From Promethearchaeia archaeon (lineage in GTDB: Archaea; Asgardarchaeota; Lokiarchaeia; Sigyniarchaeales; SOKP01), in the NCBI GenBank assembly GCA_029856045.1, contig JAHQWG010000055.1, positions 1 through 12,482 on the forward strand: a DNA stretch of 12,482 nt, written 5' to 3'. The notes below the pieces were generated by a model that made no database searches, was not told the origin of the DNA, and was given only the letters and a program-made list of their open reading frames with translations. Numbering within the stretch: the first letter of the stretch is position 1; every line of letters starts with the position of its first letter. Shown piece by piece: positions 1-12,482 of this stretch. The translations under genes and the position numbers were made by a program.

Positions 1-822
1 GAAATTATATACATCAAATCATCTATCTTGAAAGATTATTATTCAGATTTATATGTAAAAACTTTAACTGAATTAATTATTGAGCATAAACCAGAGATTA
101 TATTAATCGGTGCAACACCTACAGGTAGAGATTTCGCACCAAGAGTAGCAAAAAGGGTTAATGCTGGACTTACTGCAGACTGTACTGGATTAACCATTGA
201 CCTTGAAAGTAGGAATCTATTACAAACACGCCCTACGTTTGGTGGAAATATAATGGCGACAATCAAAACTCCATACAGCAGACCGCAAATGGCTACTGTA
301 AGACCAGGTATATTTAAACCACTTAAAAAAAGTAAGAGAAAGGTAAAAATAAAAAAAATTGATTATGACTATAGCCAAAAAGATTCCGTTTCAAAAATTG
401 TAAAAATTATCAATAGAGAAAAAAGGAAGATAAATCTTGAAGAGGCAGAAGTTATAATTACCGGAGGTAGAGGAGTTGGCTCAAAAGAAAATTTTAAACT
501 TATTGAACAATTAGCAGATTCTTTAAATGCTGAAGTAGGAGGATCAAGAGTTGCAGTTGAATTAAATTGGATTGAACAAGATCGTCAAGTTGGACAAACA
601 GGCAAAACTGTTTCACCAAAATTATACATTGCATGCGGAATATCGGGTGCAATACAGCACATAGTGGGTATGCAAGGTGCAGAGATTATAGTAGCAATTA
701 ATAAAGATCCGAAAGCACCAATTTTTAAAGTCGCACATTATGGAATTGTTGGTGAACTTCAAAAAGTTATACCAGAGCTGATTAAAGAAATAAAAAAAGT
801 AAGGACTGAAGAAAAAATTTAA
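1..822 (+). CDS. etfA: Electron transfer flavoprotein alpha subunit (EtfA/FixB family), 5'-truncated by the window edge
   Basis: Frame is open from base 1 (EIIYIKSSILKDYY...), so the TTG at 28 is probably internal. Motifs GLTADC, TRPTFGGN, RPQMATVRPG, GGRGVG and the FAD-binding QVGQTGKTVSPKLYIACGISGAIQHIVGM...AINKDPKAPIF. Stop TAA at 820-822. Confidence 0.96.
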   Translation, partial: EIIYIKSSILKDYYSDLYVKTLTELIIEHKPEIILIGATPTGRDFAPRVAKRVNAGLTADCTGLTIDLESRNLLQTRPTFGGNIMATIKTPYSRPQMATVRPGIFKPLKKSKRKVKIKKIDYDYSQKDSVSKIVKIINREKRKINLEEAEVIITGGRGVGSKENFKLIEQLADSLNAEVGGSRVAVELNWIEQDRQVGQTGKTVSPKLYIACGISGAIQHIVGMQGAEIIVAINKDPKAPIFKVAHYGIVGELQKVIPELIKEIKKVRTEEKI

Positions 823-923
823 AAAAAATGTTTTATCGTTTAAATAAATCTAATTTTTTTATATATAATTTTTAAATGAAATTATTATTTAGATTATTTA
901 AATAAATATTTGAATTCAAGTTA

Positions 924-1358
924 ATGAAAATCTTTAAAGATAATAAATTATTTTTTAAAAAGTATTGTGTTTTAATCCTAATATTGAATTTTATAGTTTT
1001 GGGTATTTCCTTAATTTTATACCCATTGTTATTTATCGGGATAATAGTTCCAGTTTTTGGTAATATTTTTGGTGTCTTATTTTTATGCAATATCTTTATA
1101 AATTTACTATTTGTTCAAATAAATTCTAAATTTTTAATAAAAACTAATGATAAGGGTAAGATTTTAAATCGAGTAACATATTGCTATCTTTTCTTTTTAT
1201 TATTCGGAGTTTTACCATTATTTTCTATCTCAGGACCAGTAGTAATTCAAAATTATATTATTTCTCTAGTAATATATCTATTTCCTATAATTATTAGCTA
1301 TTATGAACTTAAAATAATTGATAAAAAAGAGGGGATCTTTAAATGGGAGATAATATAA
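924..1358 (+). CDS. Hypothetical integral membrane protein (about 4 TM helices)
   Basis: 144-aa ORF with four hydrophobic stretches separated by short Lys-rich loops. Overlaps the next gene by 16 nt in the same orientation. Confidence 0.72.
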   Translation: MKIFKDNKLFFKKYCVLILILNFIVLGISLILYPLLFIGIIVPVFGNIFGVLFLCNIFINLLFVQINSKFLIKTNDKGKILNRVTYCYLFFLLFGVLPLFSISGPVVIQNYIISLVIYLFPIIISYYELKIIDKKEGIFKWEII

Positions 1359-2674
1359 AGATACTAAAAGTTTCATTAATTGTAATTTTTTTTTGGACTT
1401 TTATTGGTGGATTTATTTTTTCCTATACATTATTTACTGGGGGTCCAGATTCCTTAGGGATATTAATTGGTTTCGCAAATACAATTTTATCTCCTCACTT
1501 AATTATATTATATCCAATAATTACAATATTTTTCTCAAAATTAATTCCTAAAGAAAAACACAAAATTATTTACTCTCTTATCATAATTATTGGATTATCT
1601 CTAAGCATAATTTATGCAATTCCATTATTCGCGGTGCCAATTTCGATTCAACAGACAAATTCTCAATTCTATTCTAATTATGGTTCAAATTGGAATACAT
1701 TCCCAGCTGAAGTCCAAAATAATTTTTATACAACACCTTTTGAATTATATCTATTATATTATGGTATTCCTGATTCAAATGATCACAAGTTTGGTGTTTA
1801 TAAAGATATAATTTTTGTGAATGAAACTGATTACCAACTATATTTTGACGTATATTATCCAAAAGAATTAGGATTTGTTAATAATGCAACAATTATTTAT
1901 ATTCATGGAGGTGCATGGACTGGCGGTGAGAAAGAACAACAAGCAAGCACATTGGAGTATTTTGCCTCTCAAGGTTATGTTGTATTTGCTATTGAATATA
2001 GGCTATTGAATGCAAGTTTATTAGAAGAAAATTCAGATTCAGAGATAATTAGTGGACTTTTTAACCTTCAAACGACAGGGCTTGAATATCGCACTGGAAA
2101 TTATACTTTAGCGGACCAAATTACTGATATTGGAACTTTTACAAAATTTATTGCAAATAACTCAAACAATATTTATGGTGCCAACTTAAATCGAGTCTTT
2201 TTTATGGGTGGAAGTGCTGGAGCACATTTAGCAGGAGTTTGTGGATTTGGTTATAAGAATGAATATTTTAATGGAATTTTTAGTAGTGCTTTAAATATAA
2301 GTGGTTTAGTATTATATTATCCCCCTAATAACGCTTCAGAATTCTTTTATTATGTTAATAAAATGTATTATGAGATAAATCAATTTATTCCGGGTACACC
2401 TGAAACTAACCCAGAGGCATATTTATATTACAGTCCAAGTTATCTAATAAATGAAAACTCGCCGCCATGTATTCTTTTACATGGAACTTCAGACACAATG
2501 GTTCCCTATAAGGAAAGTATAACCATTCAATTAAAAATGAAGGAAAATAATCGTATATGTATTTTAATTCCAGGATATTTTGGAGGACATGGACACATAT
2601 CAGGAATTCAGCATAACTTTATGACAACTTATTATATTGAGAGATTTTTATATCACAATACTTATTATAATTAG
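1343..2674 (+). CDS. Membrane-anchored alpha/beta hydrolase (HSL/family IV esterase-lipase-like)
   Basis: About 3 N-terminal TM helices. Oxyanion motif IHGGAW, nucleophile elbow GGSAG, acid in HGTSDTMVP, His in GGHGH. Purine-rich AGAGGGG upstream of the ATG. Confidence 0.9.
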   Translation: MGDNIKILKVSLIVIFFWTFIGGFIFSYTLFTGGPDSLGILIGFANTILSPHLIILYPIITIFFSKLIPKEKHKIIYSLIIIIGLSLSIIYAIPLFAVPISIQQTNSQFYSNYGSNWNTFPAEVQNNFYTTPFELYLLYYGIPDSNDHKFGVYKDIIFVNETDYQLYFDVYYPKELGFVNNATIIYIHGGAWTGGEKEQQASTLEYFASQGYVVFAIEYRLLNASLLEENSDSEIISGLFNLQTTGLEYRTGNYTLADQITDIGTFTKFIANNSNNIYGANLNRVFFMGGSAGAHLAGVCGFGYKNEYFNGIFSSALNISGLVLYYPPNNASEFFYYVNKMYYEINQFIPGTPETNPEAYLYYSPSYLINENSPPCILLHGTSDTMVPYKESITIQLKMKENNRICILIPGYFGGHGHISGIQHNFMTTYYIERFLYHNTYYN

Positions 2675-2801
2675 GTTAAATTCACTTGATATGCTATTCA
2701 TTTTAGTCTATGACATATCAATTTTATATTGGATTCAAGATAAACTATATATAGAAGTAAAAAATTAATTCCAAAATATCTATTGGAAGTTTGTGAAGAT
2801 A

Positions 2802-3173
2802 ATGAAAAAAACGATTTTTATTGTGGAAGATAATGAAGTTTATTTAAAATTAGTTAAAGCTGTAGTTAATACTATGCCTGATTTGGAAGTTATAATTGAA
2901 ACTGAAGGAGGACGAGCTCTTGAATTGATGAAAAAAGATATTCCTGATCTTATTATTTTAGACATTCAACTTCCTGGTATAAATGGAATTGAGATTTGTA
3001 AGGAACTCCGGAAATTACCTGAGTTTAAAAATATACCCATAATTGCTATGACAGGTTATCCTGAAGATTTTGATGAATACATTGCTTCAGAAGCAGGGTT
3101 CAACAAATTATTTTCAAAACCAATAGAGCTTAACGATTTTATAAAATCAATACAAGATTTTCTATCGGTTTAA
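2802..3173 (+). CDS. Single-domain response regulator (CheY/DivK-like receiver)
   Basis: IVEDN acidic pocket, phospho-acceptor Asp in ILDIQLPGING, Thr in AMTG, Lys in SKP. No output domain. ATG at 2802 preferred; in-frame GTG at 2793 is the alternative. Confidence 0.93.
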   Translation: MKKTIFIVEDNEVYLKLVKAVVNTMPDLEVIIETEGGRALELMKKDIPDLIILDIQLPGINGIEICKELRKLPEFKNIPIIAMTGYPEDFDEYIASEAGFNKLFSKPIELNDFIKSIQDFLSV

Positions 3174-3278: not shown

Positions 3279-3953
3279 TTAGCTATATTTCTTTTTTTTA
3301 ATTTTTGTAAAAGGTTTAGAGAATTTTCTTTCACAAAAATTGTTAATGGGGCAAATTTTACATCGAGGATAAGTTGGGATACATATTTGTTGACCAAACT
3401 TTACTATTAATCCATTAGAACTCATCCATAAATCTTTTGGAATTATTTTTTTTAACTCCTTTTCAGTTTGTTCCGGCGTTTTTGTATCTACCCAACCAGT
3501 TCTATTGGATATTCTATGTACATGTATATCCACGGCAATAGCTGGGATTTTAAATGCATATATCAATACACAATTCGCCACCTTATTTCCAACTCCAGGT
3601 AATTCTATTAATTCATTAAAATCTTTTGGTACTTGTCCATTATATTTTTCTAATATTATCTGAGAAACTTGTTTAATTCTCTGAGCTTTCGTTTTATAAG
3701 TTCCTGAAACGTAGATTAATTCTTCAATATCTTCTAAATCTGCTTCAGCGATCATTTTAGGGGTATTATATTTTTTGAATAAATTATCAGTTGCAGCTGA
3801 AGTATTTTTATCTTTAGTTCGAACTGAAAGAATGGTTGAGATTAAAATTTTATAAGGATCAATATTTTTAGGAGTTCTCTGGACTAGTTCATCCAAATGG
3901 GATAATCCATTCAAAGATTGCTTTATTTTTTTAAAAATTTCATAAAAGTCCAT
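3279..3953 (-). CDS. nth: Endonuclease III (HhH-GPD DNA glycosylase/AP lyase, 4Fe-4S)
   Basis: ILSVRTKD, HhH motif LPGVGNKVA with catalytic Lys, VDIHVHRI with catalytic Asp, and C-x6-C-x2-C-x5-C (CIPTYPRCKICPINNFC). Confidence 0.95.
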   Translation of the reverse strand: MDFYEIFKKIKQSLNGLSHLDELVQRTPKNIDPYKILISTILSVRTKDKNTSAATDNLFKKYNTPKMIAEADLEDIEELIYVSGTYKTKAQRIKQVSQIILEKYNGQVPKDFNELIELPGVGNKVANCVLIYAFKIPAIAVDIHVHRISNRTGWVDTKTPEQTEKELKKIIPKDLWMSSNGLIVKFGQQICIPTYPRCKICPINNFCERKFSKPFTKIKKKKYS

Positions 3954-3968
3954 AAAAATCCGAAAATT

Positions 3969-5381
3969 TTATTTATTATTATCTAATTTTTGGAAGATGT
4001 AAAATTTGCGTTTTATAATTTGATTTTTTTTAGATTCAATAATCGATTTTAAGCTATTTAGGTTTAATTGAAGTAATTTATTAGATTTACTAAAAATTCT
4101 ATTTTTTTGGAATATTGGAATTAAATGCAATTTATGTTTTTGAGCGATTTTTTGAAGAGGGAGTTGGACTTCAAGATTTTCAACGGTTTCAATTACGGGT
4201 GAAGTTAAACATAATCTCTTTCCTGGTTTAAGTAATTTATATGATATTTTCATTAATTCTTCAAAGTTGGGTCGAATTTTTGTATCTAATAAATTCTCTG
4301 CATCTTTAAAGTCTGGTTTATTTTTATAAAAAGGGCCAAATATAGGTTCTGTGCATATTCCATCAAAGGACGATTGGTTGAAAACATTTATAAGCTCTTT
4401 AATATCCACTTTTTTAATTCTTTCTTTAAAATTTGGTATATAATCCTCTTCTAATATCTTCCCAACCCATTTTAAATTCTTTACAGTTTGTTCAACGTAT
4501 TTATTTTCAATGTCAGCTCCATATACTTCAAAACCATTAATATGTGCAAAAATGAGAATTGTTCCTGAACCACAAAATGGATCAAGGATCCTTTTGGATT
4601 CTTTATTTTCATAAAGGTTTAAGAAATTAAGCATAATTTTAGCGAATTTTGGAGGAATAGATCGCTCAAAACTTGTAAAAGGACGCTTTTCATCAATCTT
4701 TTTTTGAAAATTTGGATTAGTAACTGTATATGTTCTTGCAATATAACATCCTTCTTCTGTGAAACCAAAAATTATTTCTGCACGGTTTTTCTCTAATAAA
4801 TTGTACCTAATGACATGGTGTGGAAATATTGGATTTAAATTTCCAGTATCTATATTTCTTTGAGGATATTTATAAAAAATATTTTTTTTTGCATTCCTTT
4901 CTTTTAATAATCTTGAAATATTTTCATTTAAATAGGGCAAAAAATGCTTAATTAATATGGATTTATAATAATCATCAATATAAAGATTTGGATAAATTGA
5001 AACCGCAAAAAAGATGTTTTCATTTTCAATTTTAGGGAAAATTTCTGGTAATAAATCATTTAACTTTTTAGATATATTCGTTCTAAAAGGTTTAATTTTT
5101 TTATAGGCAACTACTAATTCAGGAAATGCTGATTTTACCTTAGAAATGTCAATAAAATCTAGAATCACTGCAATTTTTAATATTCCTCCAAGATTAAATT
5201 GTAACAATTCCAAATCATTAACATATGTTTTGGGATTTAAGCCCTCTTCAATTTCTACTATTGCAATATTAGCTGAATAATCAATAATTCGACCTTTAAA
5301 CGGTGGATTTCTTAAAATAAGATCAATTTCTGCTAAAGATAAATGCCAATTAGAACCAAGAACTAGTAGAAATCTTTTCAT
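3969..5381 (-). CDS. Trm11/Trm-G10-like (THUMP + class I SAM) RNA methyltransferase
   Basis: N-terminal LGSNWHLSLAEI typical of the family, RPF...SIPPKFAKIMLN pre-motif, motif I ILDPFCGSGTIL, GADI, and variant motif IV CTEPIFG. Substrate not established. Confidence 0.78.
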   Translation of the reverse strand: MKRFLLVLGSNWHLSLAEIDLILRNPPFKGRIIDYSANIAIVEIEEGLNPKTYVNDLELLQFNLGGILKIAVILDFIDISKVKSAFPELVVAYKKIKPFRTNISKKLNDLLPEIFPKIENENIFFAVSIYPNLYIDDYYKSILIKHFLPYLNENISRLLKERNAKKNIFYKYPQRNIDTGNLNPIFPHHVIRYNLLEKNRAEIIFGFTEEGCYIARTYTVTNPNFQKKIDEKRPFTSFERSIPPKFAKIMLNFLNLYENKESKRILDPFCGSGTILIFAHINGFEVYGADIENKYVEQTVKNLKWVGKILEEDYIPNFKERIKKVDIKELINVFNQSSFDGICTEPIFGPFYKNKPDFKDAENLLDTKIRPNFEELMKISYKLLKPGKRLCLTSPVIETVENLEVQLPLQKIAQKHKLHLIPIFQKNRIFSKSNKLLQLNLNSLKSIIESKKNQIIKRKFYIFQKLDNNK

Positions 5382-6487
5382 TATTTATTTTTATTATCCT
5401 TTTTTTGTGCTGTATTTTCATCCGTGCCCGCAACTTTATCAATATCTGCTACTATCTCATCTATATCTATTTTTTCTCTTTTATCTCCTACCATATCTAA
5501 TATTTTATCTTCAGCCATTTTCTTTTTTACTGCAGCGGTTTTTTTTTTCTTCTCATACTCTTCCTTTTTTTTTAAACGTTCTTTTTTTGTTGTCTCAATT
5601 ATATTTTTATAATGGTCTTTAAGATATTTTAAACTAAAATTAACTACATCTGAAATAGATTCCCAATTTTGGTCTTTTAAAATATTTCTGGTCCAATGAT
5701 AGAGACTATCTTTTAACTTAATTGAAACAGCTTTTCCTCCAGAGATTTGCTCTTGAGATAACCACTTAAAAATGTTGGAAATAAGCATAGAGTTATCTAA
5801 TGCTCCAAAACCATATTCTCTACTTAATGAGCTAAACATTGATACATTACCAATAGCTAATACTTTTCCTTTGTAAAATTTAGTTGCTACAAGTATAGGG
5901 ATATTAGGACAATCTTCGTGATTCCAGTTATTTCCATCATAAATTTCCCTCCAACAGTTGAGTCCACCATATGCAATTATCTCGATTTTTATATTTTTAT
6001 CTTCACTGTATTCAACAACATCAATCGAACACCCACCTGAATGCACAAATGAATTTAGATCTTCAGTTATCGAGTGATGTATGAATTTCTTGATTATTGG
6101 ACGTTTTTGCAGATTTAAATAATAAACTGAATCATTAATTCGATCTGGAGAAAATGTAAATCCAAAATCCTTTGTTAAATCAAATAAGTTAGTTTTATTA
6201 GTATGATCGCCCCCACTATTACTAATAATAAATAAACTCCCGCCTTTTTTAACGTATTCAATTAGAACTTTTATTTCTGATTCGGAATAAACAGAGTTAT
6301 AGGGGGCACCAATAATTACTAAATCATAATTTTCTAACTTTTTCACTGAATTTATTCCTGCTTCGATTTTTCCAAGCTTATACCCACTAGTGAATAAAAA
6401 TTCAACAAAATCAATAAAAGAAGGACTTTCAATAACAAGCTTATTTCCGTGGGAATAATCAAAACAAATCTTTATATCTTGACTCAT
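5381..6487 (-). CDS. GIFT (IFT52/GldG, DUF4350-like) domain protein with putative C-terminal ribbon-helix-helix domain and charged tail
   Basis: aa ~5-244: FDYSH, YDLVIIGAP, SESEIKVLIEYVKKGGSLFII, TNLFDLTKDFGF, GKVLAIGNVSMFS, DNSMLISNIFKWL. aa ~252-292 has an RHH pattern. aa 300-324 is Lys/Glu-rich. No signal peptide or TM segment visible. Confidence 0.8.
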   Translation of the reverse strand: MSQDIKICFDYSHGNKLVIESPSFIDFVEFLFTSGYKLGKIEAGINSVKKLENYDLVIIGAPYNSVYSESEIKVLIEYVKKGGSLFIISNSGGDHTNKTNLFDLTKDFGFTFSPDRINDSVYYLNLQKRPIIKKFIHHSITEDLNSFVHSGGCSIDVVEYSEDKNIKIEIIAYGGLNCWREIYDGNNWNHEDCPNIPILVATKFYKGKVLAIGNVSMFSSLSREYGFGALDNSMLISNIFKWLSQEQISGGKAVSIKLKDSLYHWTRNILKDQNWESISDVVNFSLKYLKDHYKNIIETTKKERLKKKEEYEKKKKTAAVKKKMAEDKILDMVGDKREKIDIDEIVADIDKVAGTDENTAQKKDNKNK

Positions 6488-6574: not shown

Positions 6575-7429
6575 TCATTTATTTACTAATATATCAACTA
6601 CAATATGATATAACCGAGGTCCGTAGCTTTTTACAACCCTATGTTCTATGAATTCACATTGATATCCATTTTGTTGAGCCACTTTATCAAATTCATCATA
6701 TAGTTCTAAATAATTATCCTTTTCTAGAACTCCTTCATAATGAATGAATGTCCCAGAATCTTTTACACATAATAATGCAGATGAAATGAAATCCTTCGGA
6801 GCAGGAAATACAGCCATTATTATTCTATCTGCCGTAATTCCGTTTTCAGCTAATTCTTTTACTTTTTCTTTACAATTACCGAAAATCGGAATAATTTTAA
6901 ATTCTAAATGATTTAATTTTACATTTTCCTTTAGATATTCAAATGCAACTGGGTTTAATTCAATACTATAAATTAATTTTGCTTCTGAATGTATTCCAAT
7001 TGGTAAAGAAAAGTATCCGATCCCTGCAAACATATCAATTATTATTTCTCCAGGTTTTACAAGTGTTGTTAAGTATTTTCTTTCATTAAGATTTCCTTTA
7101 CTGAACATAATTTTGGTAATATCAAATTTGTATAATACACCATGTTCTTTATGAATAACAATAGAATCATCTTTTCCAGCTAGAAATTCAATCTTTTCTG
7201 GAATTCGAAATTGTCCGGTAATTTTTCCTCCATAGTAATATACAGATTCCATCTTCGGATATAATTCTAGACATTTTTTTGCAATTATGAATCGTTTTTC
7301 ATATAATTCTGATAGTAATTTTAAAAGGATTATTTTTGAAATCATTTGAAAACCACGCGGTAATTTGTCCAATTCTTCTTGAGTTAATTCCGAATTCAAT
7401 GCAATTTTTAATCGATCTTTAAAATTCAT
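6575..7429 (-). CDS. taw2: Met-10+/Trm5-TYW2 family SAM-dependent tRNA enzyme, most like archaeal Taw2 (wyosine aminocarboxypropyltransferase)
   Basis: HKEHGVLYKFDITKIMFSKGNLNER, DMFAGIGYFSLPI, IELNP, ADRIIM, IHY, VKSYGPRLYHIVVD. 284 aa without the Trm5 D1 domain or NLP motif, and IMFS is the Taw2-like form. Confidence 0.8.
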   Translation of the reverse strand: MNFKDRLKIALNSELTQEELDKLPRGFQMISKIILLKLLSELYEKRFIIAKKCLELYPKMESVYYYGGKITGQFRIPEKIEFLAGKDDSIVIHKEHGVLYKFDITKIMFSKGNLNERKYLTTLVKPGEIIIDMFAGIGYFSLPIGIHSEAKLIYSIELNPVAFEYLKENVKLNHLEFKIIPIFGNCKEKVKELAENGITADRIIMAVFPAPKDFISSALLCVKDSGTFIHYEGVLEKDNYLELYDEFDKVAQQNGYQCEFIEHRVVKSYGPRLYHIVVDILVNK

Positions 7430-7524: not shown

Positions 7525-8607
7525 ATGGTTAATGTTTACCATGATAAAGACGGAAATTTAGAAGATTTAAATGGAAAAATTATAGCTATTATTGGATATG
7601 GTAATCAAGGAAGAGCTCAATCTTTAAATTTAAGAGATAATGGATTAAATGTTATTATTGGAAATAAAAAAGATGAATATCGAAAAATCGCTAAGAAGGA
7701 TGGCTTTGATACATATTCCATATCAGAGATTGTATTGATGTCCGATATTTTATTTATTCTTCTTCCAGATGAGATAATGAAAGATGTGTATAAGAAAGAA
7801 ATTGAACCAAATTTAAAAGAGGGAAAGACTTTATGCTTCGCTAGTGGCTATAATATTGCATTTAATCTCATCAAACCCCCAAGTAATATTAATGTGATAA
7901 TGATTGCACCAAGAATGATTGGTATAGGTGTAAGAGAGACATTTCTCTTAAAAAAAGGCTTTTTTAGTTTTATTTGTGTACATCAAGATGCTACTGGGGA
8001 TGCAAAAAAAATATTATTGGCTTTATCTAAGGGGATCGGAACATTAATGAAAGGAGGGATTGAAATCGATATGAAGACGGAGGCAATCTTAGACCTCTTC
8101 TCAGAACAAGCTTGGGGTCCCTCAATGGGACGCTGTTTATTAACATATGTTGATACGTTAGTTGATGCAGGTTATCCTCCAGAAGCAGTATTAGTGGAAT
8201 TATACATGAGTGGGGAAATGAGCTACACATTTCAAAAAATGGCTGATATTGGGTTGATAAAGCAGGTTAATTTCCACTCTCAAACCAGTCAATATGGTTC
8301 AATGAGCCGTGGCATTAAATTTAGGAAAATACCACTTAGAGAGAAGTATGACCAAATCCTTAAAGAATTAGAAAATGGGGATTTTGCTAGGGAATGGGAA
8401 GGAAAATTAGCCAAATTGAAATTTAGATTCATTAAATTCTTTGCAACAAAACAAAGAATAGCAAAGTTGGAAAAAAAAGTCAGGGCAACTTTAAATCTAA
8501 AGGATATTGATATATATGAAGAGATGCCACCATCAATCGAAGAACTTGAGGATAAGGAGAAATTATTAGCAGAATTAAAAGAATTTCAAGAATTTTATGA
8601 ATATTAA
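7525..8607 (+). CDS. ilvC: Ketol-acid reductoisomerase, class I, divergent IlvC2-type
   Basis: Rossmann IIGYGNQGRAQSLNLRDNG, LLPDE, metal ligands D190/E194 (LDLFSEQ), GYPPEAVLVE, SQTSQYG, GDFAREW. Confidence 0.9.
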   Translation: MVNVYHDKDGNLEDLNGKIIAIIGYGNQGRAQSLNLRDNGLNVIIGNKKDEYRKIAKKDGFDTYSISEIVLMSDILFILLPDEIMKDVYKKEIEPNLKEGKTLCFASGYNIAFNLIKPPSNINVIMIAPRMIGIGVRETFLLKKGFFSFICVHQDATGDAKKILLALSKGIGTLMKGGIEIDMKTEAILDLFSEQAWGPSMGRCLLTYVDTLVDAGYPPEAVLVELYMSGEMSYTFQKMADIGLIKQVNFHSQTSQYGSMSRGIKFRKIPLREKYDQILKELENGDFAREWEGKLAKLKFRFIKFFATKQRIAKLEKKVRATLNLKDIDIYEEMPPSIEELEDKEKLLAELKEFQEFYEY

Positions 8608-8617
8608 TTTTTTTTTT
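8608..8617 (+). terminator. Oligo-T tract, putative archaeal terminator of ilvC
   Basis: T10 run directly after the TAA stop. Confidence 0.5.
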
Positions 8618-8675
8618 ATTAATTGCTAGCTTATTAAATATTCTTTATCAATTTAGCAGATTTGTAAGAATTTTT

Positions 8676-8700
8676 AATAATATTTTAATTGAAGTTAAAA
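8676..8700 (+). promoter_or_regulatory. Putative promoter element upstream of the acyl-CoA ligase (TATA-like TTTTAATT)
   Basis: AATAATATTTTAATTGAAGTTAAAA, 22/25 identical to 7472-7496. Confidence 0.4.
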
Positions 8701-8763
8701 GAATTAATTATTAGTAAAATTTTTGAAAAACAGAAAAAAATAAATGTAAAAAGTTGAAAAAAA

Positions 8764-10623
8764 ATGCCAGATTTAAAGGATTTTCACGTAGATGAAAAAA
8801 AAGTATGGTTTACTGGTGGATATTGGCCAGAAGGAGTACCTCATCAAATATATGATGTTGAAGATATATCAGTAGAACCTTTATATGAAGGATTTTTAAC
8901 TGCAGCAGATAAATATAATCTATGGGATAAAGATATTTGCATTTTTGTATTAAGTGGTCATTTAGAAAGAGTAAAATTAAGGACTTTAATAGACTATGCA
9001 AAAAGATTTGGAACTTTTCTTTATGATCTCGGTATAAGAAAAGGTGATGTTGTTGCAATTGATTTACCTAATTCTATTAATTTCGTGGTTGCATATATTG
9101 GTTGCCAGTATATCGGAGCAGTGGTTGCTGGAGTTAATCCACAATATAAACCGATGGAACTTTTACATGAATTAACTATAACTGAAGCAAAAGTATTAGT
9201 TGTAATGGACGCGTTATATGTTACAGGACCTAATCAAATATTACCTAAAACTAACATAAAGTACTTAATTTCCACAAATCTTTTAGATTTTATAACTGCA
9301 GAAGGAGAGATATTTGAAAAATTAAGAGAAGCACTCCCAGATTTTCAAAGTTCTGTTCCAGATGAAGGAGAAACTTTTAAGACATATAGAATGAAAAAAA
9401 TCATCAATGAAACTGAACCAAAAGAAATTAAAGTTGAAATTGATCCCTGGGAAGATCATGCAGTATATTTAATGACTGGCGGGACGACGGGACTTCCTAA
9501 AGCAGCAGTATTAACTCACGCAAATTTGATAACAGATTTGCAAATATTGAAACCTTGGACAAAAATTGAACCTGGAATGGTTACTATTGGAAGTATTCCC
9601 TTTTTTCATGTTTTCGGGATGACATGTGTAATGAATGCATCTTTATCAATTGGAATGATTATGCTTTTATTTCCAAAACCACCTCCAGATGACGCTTTAT
9701 GTGAAGCAATAAATCATATTGATGCTTCTGAAGGAATAATGTACACCGGAGTAGAAATGCTCTTTAAAAGATTAACAGATTTAGTTGAAGCAATGGGTGA
9801 AGATGAGTTTAAAAATAAATATGATATTTGGAAAAAAATAAAATTTGCAACTCAAGGTGCAGGACCACTTCATGATTATGTTCGAATACCTTTTGAACGT
9901 ATATTTAATTGCCCAATTCGGTCTGGTTATGGTTTAACAGAAACTTCTCCAGTCTTAAGTGTAGCTCCTTTCTGGGGAAAGAATAAAATTGGTAAGTTAG
10001 GTTTGCCTTTGCCTGGTGTAGATTGGGCAATATTTGACCCAAATAATTTTGAAGCAGGTCCTATTTGTGATGGTAGTCCAGAAAGGGGAAATTTTGGTAT
10101 TGAATATACTGGTGAGATTTGTGTTGCTGGTTCAATAATTATGAAGGGATATTTGGGAGAAGCTGGTGAAAAAGAAGATAATATAAAAATGTGGGGCGGA
10201 AAACGTTGGTTATTGACAGGAGATATTGGCTTTATGGATGAACACGGATTTGTAGAAATTAGAGATCGCAAAAAATCATTAATAAAAGTCTCAGGACATA
10301 GTGTTTTTCCAAAGGAAGTTGAAGAATTGATGGGGAAACATGAAATGGTTGATGAAATTGGGATTGCTGGCATACCAGATGAAATGACTGGAGAGGCGGT
10401 AAAAGCTTGGGTTACTCTAAAGCCAGGTTATAAGGCTGGAAAAGATATTGATTCTGAATCTTTGAAAAAATGGTGTCAAGAAAATATGGCAAAATGGAAA
10501 TCTCCAAAATATATCGAATTTCTTAGGAAATTGCCTGTAAGTATTACTGGAAAAGTTCAAAGAAGAGTATTACAAGAAAAAGATCTTGATAAATTGGAAA
10601 AAGGAAAAGAAATTAAGGGCTAA
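8764..10623 (+). CDS. fadD: Long-chain fatty acid--CoA ligase (AMP-forming, FadD/LcfA-like)
   Basis: P-loop YLMTGGTTGLPKA, IPFFHVFG, GYGLTETSP, LLTGDIG, DRKKSLIKVSG...FPKEVE, and A10 motif LPVSITGK. Confidence 0.92.
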   Translation: MPDLKDFHVDEKKVWFTGGYWPEGVPHQIYDVEDISVEPLYEGFLTAADKYNLWDKDICIFVLSGHLERVKLRTLIDYAKRFGTFLYDLGIRKGDVVAIDLPNSINFVVAYIGCQYIGAVVAGVNPQYKPMELLHELTITEAKVLVVMDALYVTGPNQILPKTNIKYLISTNLLDFITAEGEIFEKLREALPDFQSSVPDEGETFKTYRMKKIINETEPKEIKVEIDPWEDHAVYLMTGGTTGLPKAAVLTHANLITDLQILKPWTKIEPGMVTIGSIPFFHVFGMTCVMNASLSIGMIMLLFPKPPPDDALCEAINHIDASEGIMYTGVEMLFKRLTDLVEAMGEDEFKNKYDIWKKIKFATQGAGPLHDYVRIPFERIFNCPIRSGYGLTETSPVLSVAPFWGKNKIGKLGLPLPGVDWAIFDPNNFEAGPICDGSPERGNFGIEYTGEICVAGSIIMKGYLGEAGEKEDNIKMWGGKRWLLTGDIGFMDEHGFVEIRDRKKSLIKVSGHSVFPKEVEELMGKHEMVDEIGIAGIPDEMTGEAVKAWVTLKPGYKAGKDIDSESLKKWCQENMAKWKSPKYIEFLRKLPVSITGKVQRRVLQEKDLDKLEKGKEIKG

Positions 10624-10626
10624 AAA

Positions 10627-10654
10627 TTTTTATTTTTTTTTTATTATTTTTTTT
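10627..10654 (+). terminator. T-rich tract between convergent genes, putative terminator of the acyl-CoA ligase
   Basis: T5, T10 and T8 runs immediately after the stop at 10623. Confidence 0.5.
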
Positions 10655-11771
10655 AATCAATTATTTCGCCTTTTAAATTTTCAAATGCGAAATATGAAGT
10701 TGAAAATGTCTTAACATTCAACACTTCCAACACTTCAGCAATTTCATCATCATATGCTCTTGAAATTATTTCAGGTTTAAGTGTTAAATTTTTTACATTT
10801 TGAACTATTTCCAGTATTTCATTAACATCTTCTTTTAATGTTATAATGAGCTGTGTACAATCATAGATTCGTGCTTGGGTCAATATTTTTTTAGAAGTGG
10901 CGCTTCCTATTATTAATTTTATACTTAATAAATCTTCAACCTCTTCAATGTCCAATTCATCTCTTTCAAATTCAACTACAAAATATTCTCTTCCAATAGA
11001 TTCAAAATAATTTACTAATCGACGAGAAAAATTATTCCAGCCTACTATAATCACTAATCCTGATTTATTAACAAACCAACTTTTTATTCTTTCAAATGTC
11101 CATTTAGTTGACGAGAAAATATTAACATCAAATCCTTTTATCAGTTTCTTTAATCTCTCATCGAATATTCTACAATGAATAGGGCATTTTTCATTTATTT
11201 CGCGGATCCTTTTTACTAAAATAATCGCTTGTTTAACATTATTATTTACTAAAAACACTTCTCTACATTCTTTGATATTTACTAATTCTAAGGTTTCAGG
11301 TAATAAAGGGTTCCTAATAACAACAATATCTCCCGACTCCAAAAGATCTTGTACTAACTCTTCATTTTCTTCGATCATAACATATTTAATCCCTTTTTCA
11401 TTCATATATTCAATAATTCTAAGAGCCAAATGGGACCAACCAATAATCACAACATGTTTATCCATATTTTTTGCAATTTTTTCAGCAGTTAATCTCGGAT
11501 TGATTCGACTCGTGGATCTTTCAATGATAACCGTAAAAATTCCCTGACTTATAATAATTGTTCCAAATATTTGGTAAAATATTTCAAAAGTATTATCAGC
11601 ACCAAAATCTTTCATAAAAAATGTTGCTAAAAAAATATCTGTTAGAGATGCGATGGAACTATACATGAACCAATGAAATAAAAATCCTCCACCAAACCAA
11701 ACCAGTATCAGGATTAATGGTACTTTAATTTCCCCAATAAAAATACCTAATTTAACAAGCAATTTTCCCAT
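10653..11771 (-). CDS. 2-TM ion-channel-like protein with two tandem RCK (TrkA-N) domains
   Basis: TM1 aa ~17-37, short pore-helix-like segment, TM2 aa ~62-83. Two homologous Rossmann repeats start HVVIIGWSHLA and LVIIVGWNNFS and end FSSTKWTFERIK and FSTSYFAFENLK. Confidence 0.82.
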   Translation of the reverse strand: MGKLLVKLGIFIGEIKVPLILILVWFGGGFLFHWFMYSSIASLTDIFLATFFMKDFGADNTFEIFYQIFGTIIISQGIFTVIIERSTSRINPRLTAEKIAKNMDKHVVIIGWSHLALRIIEYMNEKGIKYVMIEENEELVQDLLESGDIVVIRNPLLPETLELVNIKECREVFLVNNNVKQAIILVKRIREINEKCPIHCRIFDERLKKLIKGFDVNIFSSTKWTFERIKSWFVNKSGLVIIVGWNNFSRRLVNYFESIGREYFVVEFERDELDIEEVEDLLSIKLIIGSATSKKILTQARIYDCTQLIITLKEDVNEILEIVQNVKNLTLKPEIISRAYDDEIAEVLEVLNVKTFSTSYFAFENLKGEIID

Positions 11772-11870
11772 TTTTTATCTACCTTCAATAAATGGTTATA
11801 AATAATTTAAGGTCATAATTTTAATTAAAGATATAGGATTCTTAAAATAATAAAAACCAATAAAATCTGA

Positions 11871-12482
11871 ATGATGATACAAGAGGATACAATAAAAGCG
11901 GCGGAAGTTATAAAAAAGTGCAACCGTATTGTAGTATTTACTGGAGCTGGTATTTCAACAGAATCAGGAATTCCCGATTTCCGAAATCCAGGAGGATTAT
12001 GGAGTAAATATGATCCCGATATATATGCGAATTACTTTCTATTTTTAAAAAATCCATCTCCATTTTGGACGATGCATCATGAAGTTGTTAATATGTTGAT
12101 AAAGGCTAAACCAAATCCTGCACATTACGCAATTTTTGAATTAGAAAAAATGAGGAAATTAAAGGCCATCATCACACAGAATGTCGATATGCTTCATCAA
12201 AGAGCAGGTTCAGGAACAGTCCATAATGTCCCTATCTTTGAATTGCATGGAGCATTTGGTGATTTATATTGTATGGAATGTGATAAAAAATATAATCACG
12301 ATGAAATTAAAGGTCTTTTAACAAAAGAGGAAAAAATTGTGCCATATTGCGAATGTGGCGGAGTTATTAAACCAACAACAATCTTATTTGGAGAACAGCT
12401 TCCTTCAAAAGTTTTATCTGGTGCTCTTAATGCTTGTAGTAATTGTGATTGTTTTTTAATGATTGGAAGTTCCCTACTTGTT
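11871..12482 (+). CDS. cobB: NAD-dependent protein deacylase, Sir2/CobB family, 3'-truncated by the window edge
   Basis: Manual translation gives 204 open codons: MMIQEDTIKAAEVIKKCNRIVVFTGAGISTESGIPDFRNPGGLW...PNPAH...ITQNVDMLHQRAG...ELHG...CMEC...CECGG...LFGE...IGSSLLV. Confidence 0.96.
   Translation, partial: MMIQEDTIKAAEVIKKCNRIVVFTGAGISTESGIPDFRNPGGLWSKYDPDIYANYFLFLKNPSPFWTMHHEVVNMLIKAKPNPAHYAIFELEKMRKLKAIITQNVDMLHQRAGSGTVHNVPIFELHGAFGDLYCMECDKKYNHDEIKGLLTKEEKIVPYCECGGVIKPTTILFGEQLPSKVLSGALNACSNCDCFLMIGSSLLV

Follow-up and report, generated by a model that had tools for sequence, protein, structure and literature searches.

A soluble GIFT-domain protein of a Loki-class Asgard archaeon, nearest in fold to the head of IFT52 and encoded beside tRNA-modification genes

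What is a protein with a head like that of the intraflagellar-transport protein IFT52 doing among the tRNA-modification genes of an archaeon, and how close does it stand to IFT52 itself? The question is raised by a stretch of 12,482 nucleotides (the window; positions 1 to 12,482 of contig JAHQWG010000055.1, assembly GCA_029856045.1, Promethearchaeia archaeon), in which an open reading frame (ORF) at 5381-6487 on the minus strand, with an ATG start and 368 codons, encodes a protein of 368 aa that we call OG1. An earlier note, made from the letters of the DNA alone, had taken its N-terminal part for a cytoplasmic, IFT52-like GIFT domain. The analysis reported here supports the domain assignment, places OG1 as one branch among many related Asgard proteins, and reads it, with a probability of about 0.5, as a cytoplasmic and probably non-catalytic scaffold or adaptor.

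The gene encoding OG1 (5381..6487, minus strand) is real and strongly constrained, because 399 clusters at 90% identity match the protein in a word-indexed search, with identities typically of about 50% across 96% of its length, and because 63 positions are invariant in an alignment of 34 orthologues that are 44-79% identical to the window protein. No NCBIfam model was found for it. The host is an Asgard archaeon of the Loki class: the orthologues carry the NCBI names Promethearchaeota or Lokiarchaeota. The G+C content of the window is 25-35%, and the genome comprises 3.34 Mb in 55 contigs with an estimated completeness of 100%. The window stretch occurs in DNA runs of marine-sediment and salt-marsh metagenomes, with no RNA run among those listed. 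With regard to topology, a Kyte-Doolittle scan in 19-residue windows revealed no membrane segment (peak mean hydropathy 1.08), and the N-terminus (MSQDIKICFDYSH...) has no hydrophobic core of a signal peptide, as it is polar and leads directly into strand 1. Since there is no hydrophobic segment and the polar N-terminus runs into the first strand, OG1 is predicted to be cytoplasmic and soluble. The absence of a signal peptide and of a transmembrane segment, as well as a domain start at about residue 5, had been proposed in the earlier note, and both agree with these results, the first strand of the AlphaFold2 model being located at residues 6-10.

The head of OG1, aa 1-247 (5747..6487, minus strand), is modelled with a class I glutamine-amidotransferase-like fold that ends in a helix at 229-244. 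The model was built on the 34-sequence alignment and has a mean pLDDT of 70.8 and a pTM of 0.64; block-averaged pLDDT in the head is mostly about 70-92, with low-confidence stretches at 18-21 and 120-128. At the sequence level, the Pfam family PF23355 (IFT52_GIFT) matches aa 36-124 with 40.1 bits against a cut-off of 27.2, and PF09822 (ABC_transp_aux) gives 27.3 bits, under its cut-off of 34.7. The three best single-sequence matches in the PDB all belong to IFT52, from Chlamydomonas and mouse (E 3.5e-6 to 3.3e-5), with phmmer aligning residues 32-131 of the query to the Chlamydomonas protein (5fmr_A) at E 3.5e-6. A profile of 22 orthologous heads reaches IFT52 at E 5.6e-14 over positions 32-132, and its other PDB matches at E <= 0.001 are four de novo designed TIM barrels, each over a short stretch. 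The phmmer, orthologue-profile and PF23355 matches delimit a core GIFT signature at aa 32-131 (6095..6394, minus strand) that includes the GGS...GGD.....TN.N motif and is the sole part of OG1 aligning to IFT52 by sequence.

Comparison of the model with solved structures points to the same relative. Foldseek ranks the N-terminal domain of IFT52 (IFT52N) first (5fms_B, E 1.5e-15, TM 0.81; 5fmr, E 2.4e-14), followed by OST48 (9e-11) and ThuA-like proteins (about 1e-9). VIA-align, a search independent of Foldseek that covered 48,161 chains, aligns 215 residues of OG1 to 5fms_A with Z 23.9, a root-mean-square deviation (rmsd) of 2.8 A and 23% identity; Chlamydomonas IFT52 (Z 19.7) comes next, then OST48 (Z 19.3 and 18.0) and, at lower scores, 8uw8_A, a site-one protease/SPRING chain (17.6), STM3548 (17.0) and a ThuA-like protein (15.2). 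Genuine glutamine amidotransferases (GATases) match the model at Z 10-13. IFT52N, and neither ThuA nor DJ-1, is thus at the top in both searches, and the model comparisons show OG1 aa 1-247 to be a GIFT domain whose nearest solved relative is the IFT52 head. Together with the PF23355 match and the lack of a signal or membrane segment, the fold match bears out the cytoplasmic GIFT domain of the earlier note. The N-terminal domain of OST48/Wbp1 (PF03345; 6S7O chain G, 6C26 chain B) represents the second-best fold family, but it has no significant sequence match on OG1, and OST48 is a lumenal protein with a C-terminal membrane anchor. Bacterial cytoplasmic GATase1-like or ThuA-like proteins (STM3548 2GK3, 3RHT and 1T0B, Z 15-17) are soluble single-domain proteins of the same superfold, but they are less similar to OG1, give no GIFT signature match at E <= 0.001 and have no helical tail.

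Across the 34 orthologues, the invariant positions include G82, G83, G92, N97, T99, N100, S150 and S154, as well as G207, G213, S216, S219, S220 and N232, and the sequence blocks that the earlier note had quoted are real and represent the most conserved parts of the family. A beta-hairpin at aa ~159-195 (5903..6013, minus strand; model strands 166-173, 178-183 and 188-192) carries the invariant W188, D192 and P194 and the near-invariant W179. This hairpin is missing from the shorter heads, of about 225 aa, of a second group of Asgard GIFT proteins discussed below as family 2, whose matches to the OG1 profile skip positions ~159-193.

How specific is the link to IFT52? IFT52 (OSM-6/BLD1; PF23355; PDB 5FMS, 5FMR and 8BD7 chain B) shares with OG1 the fold, a domain length of about 245 aa, a GG(D/E).....TN.N signature past the fourth strand, a cytoplasmic location, an apparent lack of a canonical amidotransferase triad and a plan in which the head is followed by an extended tail. 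It differs in that the structural alignment has only about 23% identity and the likeness in sequence covers only about 100 residues, and OG1 has neither the central region with which IFT52 binds IFT88/IFT70 nor its C-terminal domain that binds IFT46. Indeed, Pfam gives no match to these domains, nor any beyond the GIFT domain, at E <= 1; aa 245-368 have no Pfam or PDB sequence match, and the protein ends 14 residues past the acidic helix described below. A proposed correspondence between R129 of OG1 and K130 of Chlamydomonas IFT52, a residue of the IFT-B1/B2 contact, was dropped, as it depends on the last columns of the HMM alignment and the H-P-K-E of IFT52 fits the H-x-I-T of OG1 (H138) equally well.

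The GIFT domain is also homologous to that of GldG and other ABC_transp_aux proteins, which represent the bacterial side of the GIFT superfamily, and in eleven OG1 orthologues the scores of the two Pfam families are about equal (PF23355 28-50 bits, PF09822 21-48 bits). Several of them score above the PF09822 cut-off (47.5, 44.9, 38.5 and 37.8 bits), including copies in single-contig genomes of 4.3 Mb and 6.0 Mb from the order of the window, and some orthologues bear the NCBI name 'Gldg family protein'. One could accordingly suspect that OG1 was mis-read as IFT52-like and is an ordinary ABC-transporter auxiliary protein of the GldG type. Proteins of that type act together with ABC transporters and are either exported or anchored in the membrane, whereas OG1 is soluble, with neither signal peptide nor membrane segment, and no ABC transporter gene is found in the window or in the conserved neighbourhood. 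Moreover, PF09822 stays below its cut-off on OG1 itself, and the IFT52N fold match is clearly above the others, though no GldG structure was among the results for comparison. This explanation is therefore considered very improbable. Of the proposed kinship with IFT52, what stands is that IFT52N is the best solved match by both sequence and fold; what does not stand is its exclusivity, given the roughly 100 residues of sequence likeness and the nearly equal PF09822 scores.

The topology of OG1 is not exceptional either. A search across all life with the OG1 orthologue profile collected 2398 clusters (50% identity) at E <= 0.001, 495 of them at E <= 1e-10, and just 18 among the best 149 cluster representatives contain a strongly hydrophobic segment, which suggests that signal-less GIFT proteins are common. 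The statement of the earlier note that prokaryotic GIFT domains are typically extracytoplasmic is contradicted by the remaining representatives, about 130 of the 149. In the ESM Atlas, PF23355 also occurs in bacterial (Thermodesulfobacteriota, Aquificota) and Thermoplasmatota clusters. The central and C-terminal domains of IFT52 were found in none of ten Pfam-scanned proteins among the best 150 of the 2398 matches, all ten being of archaeal type, and no IFT52-looking protein appears in the remainder of those best 150. Likewise, a word-indexed search with P0168, the most IFT52-like archaeal protein, returned 48 matches, nearly all named Asgard, and no IFT52.

The distribution of OG1, as judged on sampled species-representative genomes of Asgard archaea, is narrow. 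Four taxonomic families, f1-f4, of the order to which the window belongs are the only ones with true orthologues (E <= 1e-33, about 40-58% identity); elsewhere the best E-values are 1e-17 to 1e-26 in the other orders of this class and 1e-6 to 1e-23 in the remainder of the phylum, unless there is no match at all. Sequence comparison thus shows that signal-less GIFT proteins form a large radiation in Asgard archaea, of which OG1 is a Loki-type branch restricted to one order. NCBI names assign some close orthologues, with 47-51% identity, to Thorarchaeota, Hodarchaeota, Heimdallarchaeota and Hermodarchaeota. These names of metagenome-assembled genomes are probably unreliable, as species-representative orthologues of such quality are restricted to the window's order.

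The same radiation is visible within the genome, where four ORFs score above the PF23355 cut-off, namely OG1 and three other signal-less GIFT paralogues. One is a close paralogue of 306 aa (contig C27, L001:946-1866, minus strand) with a PF23355 score of 54.4 bits, higher than that of OG1; its head is 43% identical to that of OG1 and is followed by the same post-domain segment, with no stalk or tail. A similar second copy is present in many genomes of the same taxonomic family. By ORF reading only, the gene for the 306-aa protein lies between a thiolase-like gene and a gene for a phosphatase-like protein of the PPP family (calcineurin-like). One further PF23355-positive ORF lies in a frame of 1332 codons. 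The last paralogue, a 460-aa protein (contig C47, L003:481-1863, minus strand), belongs to family 2, which is characterized by a GIFT head of 225 aa followed by a coiled coil and a helical hairpin. The hairpin of the C47 protein, aa 391-460, has a structural match in 8WHN, the ribophorin I (OST1) cytoplasmic domain from Ca. Prometheoarchaeum syntrophicum MK-D1, with Z 10.9, rmsd 1.6 A and 23% identity over 70 residues; helical hairpins being what is compared, this may be a mere shared arrangement.

In a test of five genomes from other Asgard lineages and 14 control genomes, PF23355 is found above its cut-off in all of the former and in none of the latter, and most of these matches are N-terminal GIFT heads in frames of 400-545 codons. 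ORFs of the family-2 type were read in three of the five (G117, G128 and G300), and records with family 2 include Ca. Heimdallarchaeum endolithica, Heimdallarchaeota AB_125, Thorarchaeota, Freyarchaeota and Jordarchaeia, as well as a genome of 1.4 Mb. Family 2 resembles OG1 in having a signal-less GIFT head at the extreme N-terminus, a helical tail, and the GGD..TN and H..(C)S motifs. It differs from OG1 in the shorter head without the aa 159-195 hairpin, in a tail that has no ribbon-helix-helix-like segment, and in its spread across Asgard classes as opposed to one order. The genes around it differ among the four Asgard lineages compared, with no conserved context. A quick maximum-likelihood tree of 86 GIFT heads, made from archaeal-type sequences only and rooted at the midpoint, and hence silent on where IFT52 attaches, sets a family-2 group (SH-aLRT 91) apart from a group that unites the OG1 clade (SH-aLRT 98) with proteins of about 315 aa and a tail-anchored set.

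Further members of the radiation deserve mention. A group resembling tail-anchored proteins (P0157, P0163, P0203, P0226, P0251 and L048:1369-2433, plus strand, in G128; one of them named Helarchaeales) consists of signal-less proteins, about 350-400 aa long, whose only strongly hydrophobic segment lies at the very C-terminal end. P0163 has a weak OST48_N match (26 bits), and the group's layout of a GIFT head with a C-terminal anchor recalls OST48. Two Heimdall-type GIFT proteins of about 340 aa, P0285 and P0306, are found in records named 'candidate division Zixibacteria bacterium' and 'Candidatus Bathyarchaeia archaeon', which reflects either mis-binning or transfer; many proteins of this type also carry the Pfam family PF27016.

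It may be asked whether OG1 is the archaeal orthologue or direct ancestor of IFT52, already at the core of an IFT-like transport complex. Such a relation would agree with IFT52N being the best solved match in sequence and fold, with the cytoplasmic location and the plan of a head with an extended tail, and our literature search found no paper naming both IFT52 and Asgard. The distribution speaks against it, as orthologues are confined to one order of the Loki class and do not extend to the Heimdall lineage, and family 2, which named Heimdallarchaeota genomes do contain, appears to be no more distant from IFT52 than OG1 is. In particular, the family-2 profile aligns with both halves of the domain in Chlamydomonas IFT52 and scores 105 bits (E 4.9e-29), compared with 55 bits over one part for OG1, and the family-2 model (pLDDT 84) superimposes on IFT52N with Z 27.9 and rmsd 1.9 A over 213 residues, OST48 following at 20.2. 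In family-2 members, PF23355 scores above PF09822 by roughly 10-40 bits. A profile of Heimdall sequences only gives a lower score against IFT52, 42 bits, and single-sequence scores are tied (30.7 bits for the C47 paralogue, 29.7 bits for OG1). That family 2 is the closer relative is a likelihood and not a demonstration, because profile scores grow with the diversity of the profile. The missing central and C-terminal IFT52 domains, the parity of the two Pfam families on the orthologues and the bacterial and Thermoplasmatota clusters marked by PF23355 add to the case against OG1 as ancestor, a role that we consider highly unlikely. The suggestion that OG1 is an overlooked eukaryotic-signature-like protein has the IFT52N fold and the topology in its favour; it fails to single out OG1, which is limited to one order and has a pan-Asgard paralogue at least as close.

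Past the head, residues 247-254 are poorly modelled and are followed by helices at 256-272 and 278-332. A possible ribbon-helix-helix (RHH)-like segment spans aa ~250-295 (5603..5740, minus strand), with a strand-like ...VSIKL... stretch before the helix at 256-272 and the one from 278 onward. By hhalign, the alignment of this segment compares with ten RHH_1 proteins of the genome at a probability of 50.7% and E 1.6e-4 over 42 columns, in strand-helix-helix register. A PDB profile search of the segment yields chance-level matches only (best eIF1A, E 0.07), and the monomer model has the two helices and no strand. The helix from 278 continues into a Lys/Glu-rich stalk at aa ~296-332 (5492..5602, minus strand), recognized in the model and from its charged, variable columns; the helix 278-332 is single and long, and its model confidence is low to middling. 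The stalk leads to an acidic helix motif at aa ~325-354 (5426..5515, minus strand; consensus EDKILE..PVRKKEDLEDIMSALEE.TGEK, model helix 342-353), in which R337, D341 and I345 are invariant and E326, L342, G354 and E355 nearly so. After it, 14 residues remain in the genus of the window, and most orthologues of other genera are longer: an AIW.GK.T..F..WL motif closes some of them, others are forms of about 600 aa with a further coiled coil, and one subclade (P0038, P0084, P0099, P0104, P0113 and P0118) ends in a HeH/LEM-, SAP- or Rho_N-like motif that stays under the Pfam cut-offs (HeH 26.6 vs 28.9, Rho_N 23.1 vs 24.9). OG1 is therefore a distinct architecture of a known domain family, composed of a GIFT domain, a possible RHH-like segment and a stalk.

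The tail allows for a DNA-binding regulator, in which an RHH dimer would bind DNA and the GIFT domain would sense a ligand, so as to control the adjacent tRNA-modification and repair genes. The register with the RHH_1 proteins, the HeH/SAP/Rho_N-like end of the subclade (26.6 bits against the 28.9 required), the position of the gene within a co-directional run, the length of 368 aa and the AT-rich gap of 87 nt upstream would all be compatible with such a role. On the other hand, neither Pfam nor the PDB profile search finds an RHH family, the consensus strand ITVNLNL is poor in basic residues, and a long coiled stalk with a very conserved head of 247 aa would be unusual for a local repressor. 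RHH modules are, furthermore, usually N-terminal in small proteins, and the neighbourhood differs between the taxonomic families. Regulation of this kind is a minor possibility.

The gene neighbourhood provides the other clue to function. OG1 is the second gene in a co-directional run on the minus strand, comprising a Taw2/Trm5b-type gene, OG1, a Trm11-like gene and nth. The upstream neighbour (6575..7429), a Taw2/Trm5b-type tRNA-modification enzyme, consists of a TYW2 N-terminal domain and a TRM5-TYW2 methyltransferase domain (PF02475 162.5 bits, PF25133 45.5 bits); the NCBIfam models Taw2 and Trm5b match it at about 176-184 bits, below their equivalog cut-offs, and the AT-rich gap between it and OG1 is the one of 87 nt mentioned above. 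The downstream neighbour (3969..5381) encodes a 470-aa homologue of the Trm11-like tRNA guanine-N2 methyltransferases, which appears to be a divergent family member because its TIGR01177 score, 62.7 bits, is far under the cut-off (316). Its PDB matches are 5e71_A, deposited as N2,N2-dimethylguanosine tRNA methyltransferase (E 4.6e-9), and 6zxw_G, a tRNA (guanine(10)-N2)-dimethyltransferase (E 2.3e-6); no Pfam match and no THUMP domain was detected in its N-terminal ~200 residues. The stop codon of OG1 overlaps the start codon of this gene in a TAATG (5381..5385, minus strand), the two ORFs sharing base 5381. The run ends with an endonuclease III gene, nth (3279..3953), with 99 bits for HhH-GPD and 208 bits for TIGR01083, just under the cut-off of 211.7.

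This arrangement recurs among orthologues. In f1, a Taw2 gene is located just upstream in 20 of 29 other loci and a Trm11-like gene just downstream in 23 of 29, and where a neighbour is missing the retrieved DNA often ends too early to tell. In f3, the order Taw2 - GIFT is kept in three loci, and a fourth has the Trm11-like gene beside the GIFT gene on the opposite strand. The remaining genes of the window are, at 1-3173, the ETF alpha subunit (cut at the start), an alpha/beta-hydrolase esterase (BD-FAE) and a single-domain response regulator, and, at 7525-12482, ketol-acid reductoisomerase (KARI), an AMP-forming acyl-CoA synthetase, a TrkA-N protein and a Sir2 deacetylase (cut at the end).

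As for function, a non-catalytic scaffold is favoured because the solved relatives are not enzymes and the nucleophile elbow lacks a conserved residue: this position, which follows strand 84-88 and lies ahead of the invariant GG (before G92), varies among S, M, R, Q, T and I. IFT52N has no catalytic residues and does not bind sugar (PMC4818760), and it docks the C-terminal TPRs of IFT88 and the coiled coil of IFT57/38 (PMC9753473). By analogy with this docking, the GIFT head of OG1 may be a protein-binding platform, the possible RHH-like segment and the long charged helix may mediate dimerisation or oligomerisation, and the conserved acidic helix may recruit partners. The variable terminal motif, which is found in most orthologues outside the genus of the window and is HeH/SAP-like in one subclade, might likewise recruit partners. 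The likeliest partners would be tRNA-modification enzymes or nucleic acid, because taw2 and the Trm11-like gene are the usual flanks and translation appears to be coupled here; this is the weakest step of the proposal.

Several observations weigh against a scaffold. All of its functional steps are inferred from analogy and neighbourhood, on a model of middling confidence. Within the tail, the RHH-like nature of aa 250-295 amounts to a coin toss (probability 51%), and that segment finds no RHH family in Pfam at E <= 1 or in the PDB profile search. The link with the methyltransferases is recurrent but not obligatory, and it may represent inherited gene order: in genome G143 (4.3 Mb, single contig) the Trm11-like gene is 2.7 Mb away from the OG1 orthologue, and in G128, from another order, the methyltransferase is present with no OG1 orthologue. 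Finally, conservation of OG1 appears very high for a pure scaffold, since many of the 63 invariant positions are polar, among them D10, H13, E20, R129, H138, S150, S154 and E224, along with the near-invariant C153, and most of these residues would fall on the C-terminal edge of the central sheet, the active-site side of the superfamily.

The same residues, together with the invariant Y11, N64, the D-rich GGD, N97, T99 and N100, invite the idea that OG1 is an enzyme or a binder of a small ligand, in which these conserved polar residues would form an active site since lost by IFT52. The fold does come from an enzyme superfamily, and the H..(C)S pattern (H137, C152 and S153) is near-invariant in family 2 too, the equivalent stretch of the IFT52 alignment being GATL, with no Cys. 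Against catalysis stand the unconserved canonical nucleophile-elbow residue, the apparent lack of a canonical Cys-His-Glu triad and the non-enzymatic nature of the closest relatives, IFT52N and OST48 (PMC4818760). An enzymatic or ligand-binding OG1 is thus rather unlikely, and the scaffold or adaptor is retained as the best explanation.

With regard to what was already known, databases do label these proteins: the ESM Atlas automatically names Promethearchaeota clusters 'IFT52 GIFT domain-containing', and Pfam matches are precomputed. Judging by title and abstract, none of the papers mentioning IFT52 and archaea deals with an archaeal IFT52 homologue, and those using the term 'GIFT domain' concern IFT-B, oligosaccharyltransferase (OST) or site-one protease, none being about archaea. 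The wider Asgard radiation of soluble IFT52-type GIFT proteins is apparently undescribed. A bolder proposal, which we hold to be improbable and offer as speculation, is that the signal-less GIFT proteins of Asgard archaea, with family 2 and with OG1 as a derived branch, are the stock from which IFT52 arose, and that the Loki branch is a nucleic-acid-associated scaffold organising Taw2 and the Trm11-like enzyme. If true, it would provide a testable prokaryotic function for a GIFT head domain.

As the domain is widespread in prokaryotes and the OG1 branch is confined to one order, OG1 alone shows neither a special link between archaea and eukaryotes nor the ancestry of IFT52. Its main value is as part of the wider Asgard GIFT radiation, to which it adds a recurring link to tRNA-modification genes. 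IFT-B, the complex that builds cilia, has IFT52 as its backbone, and the GIFT head of IFT52 poses a question of origin; the soluble IFT52-type GIFT proteins of Asgard archaea offer an experimental handle on the role of this head domain outside the cilium.

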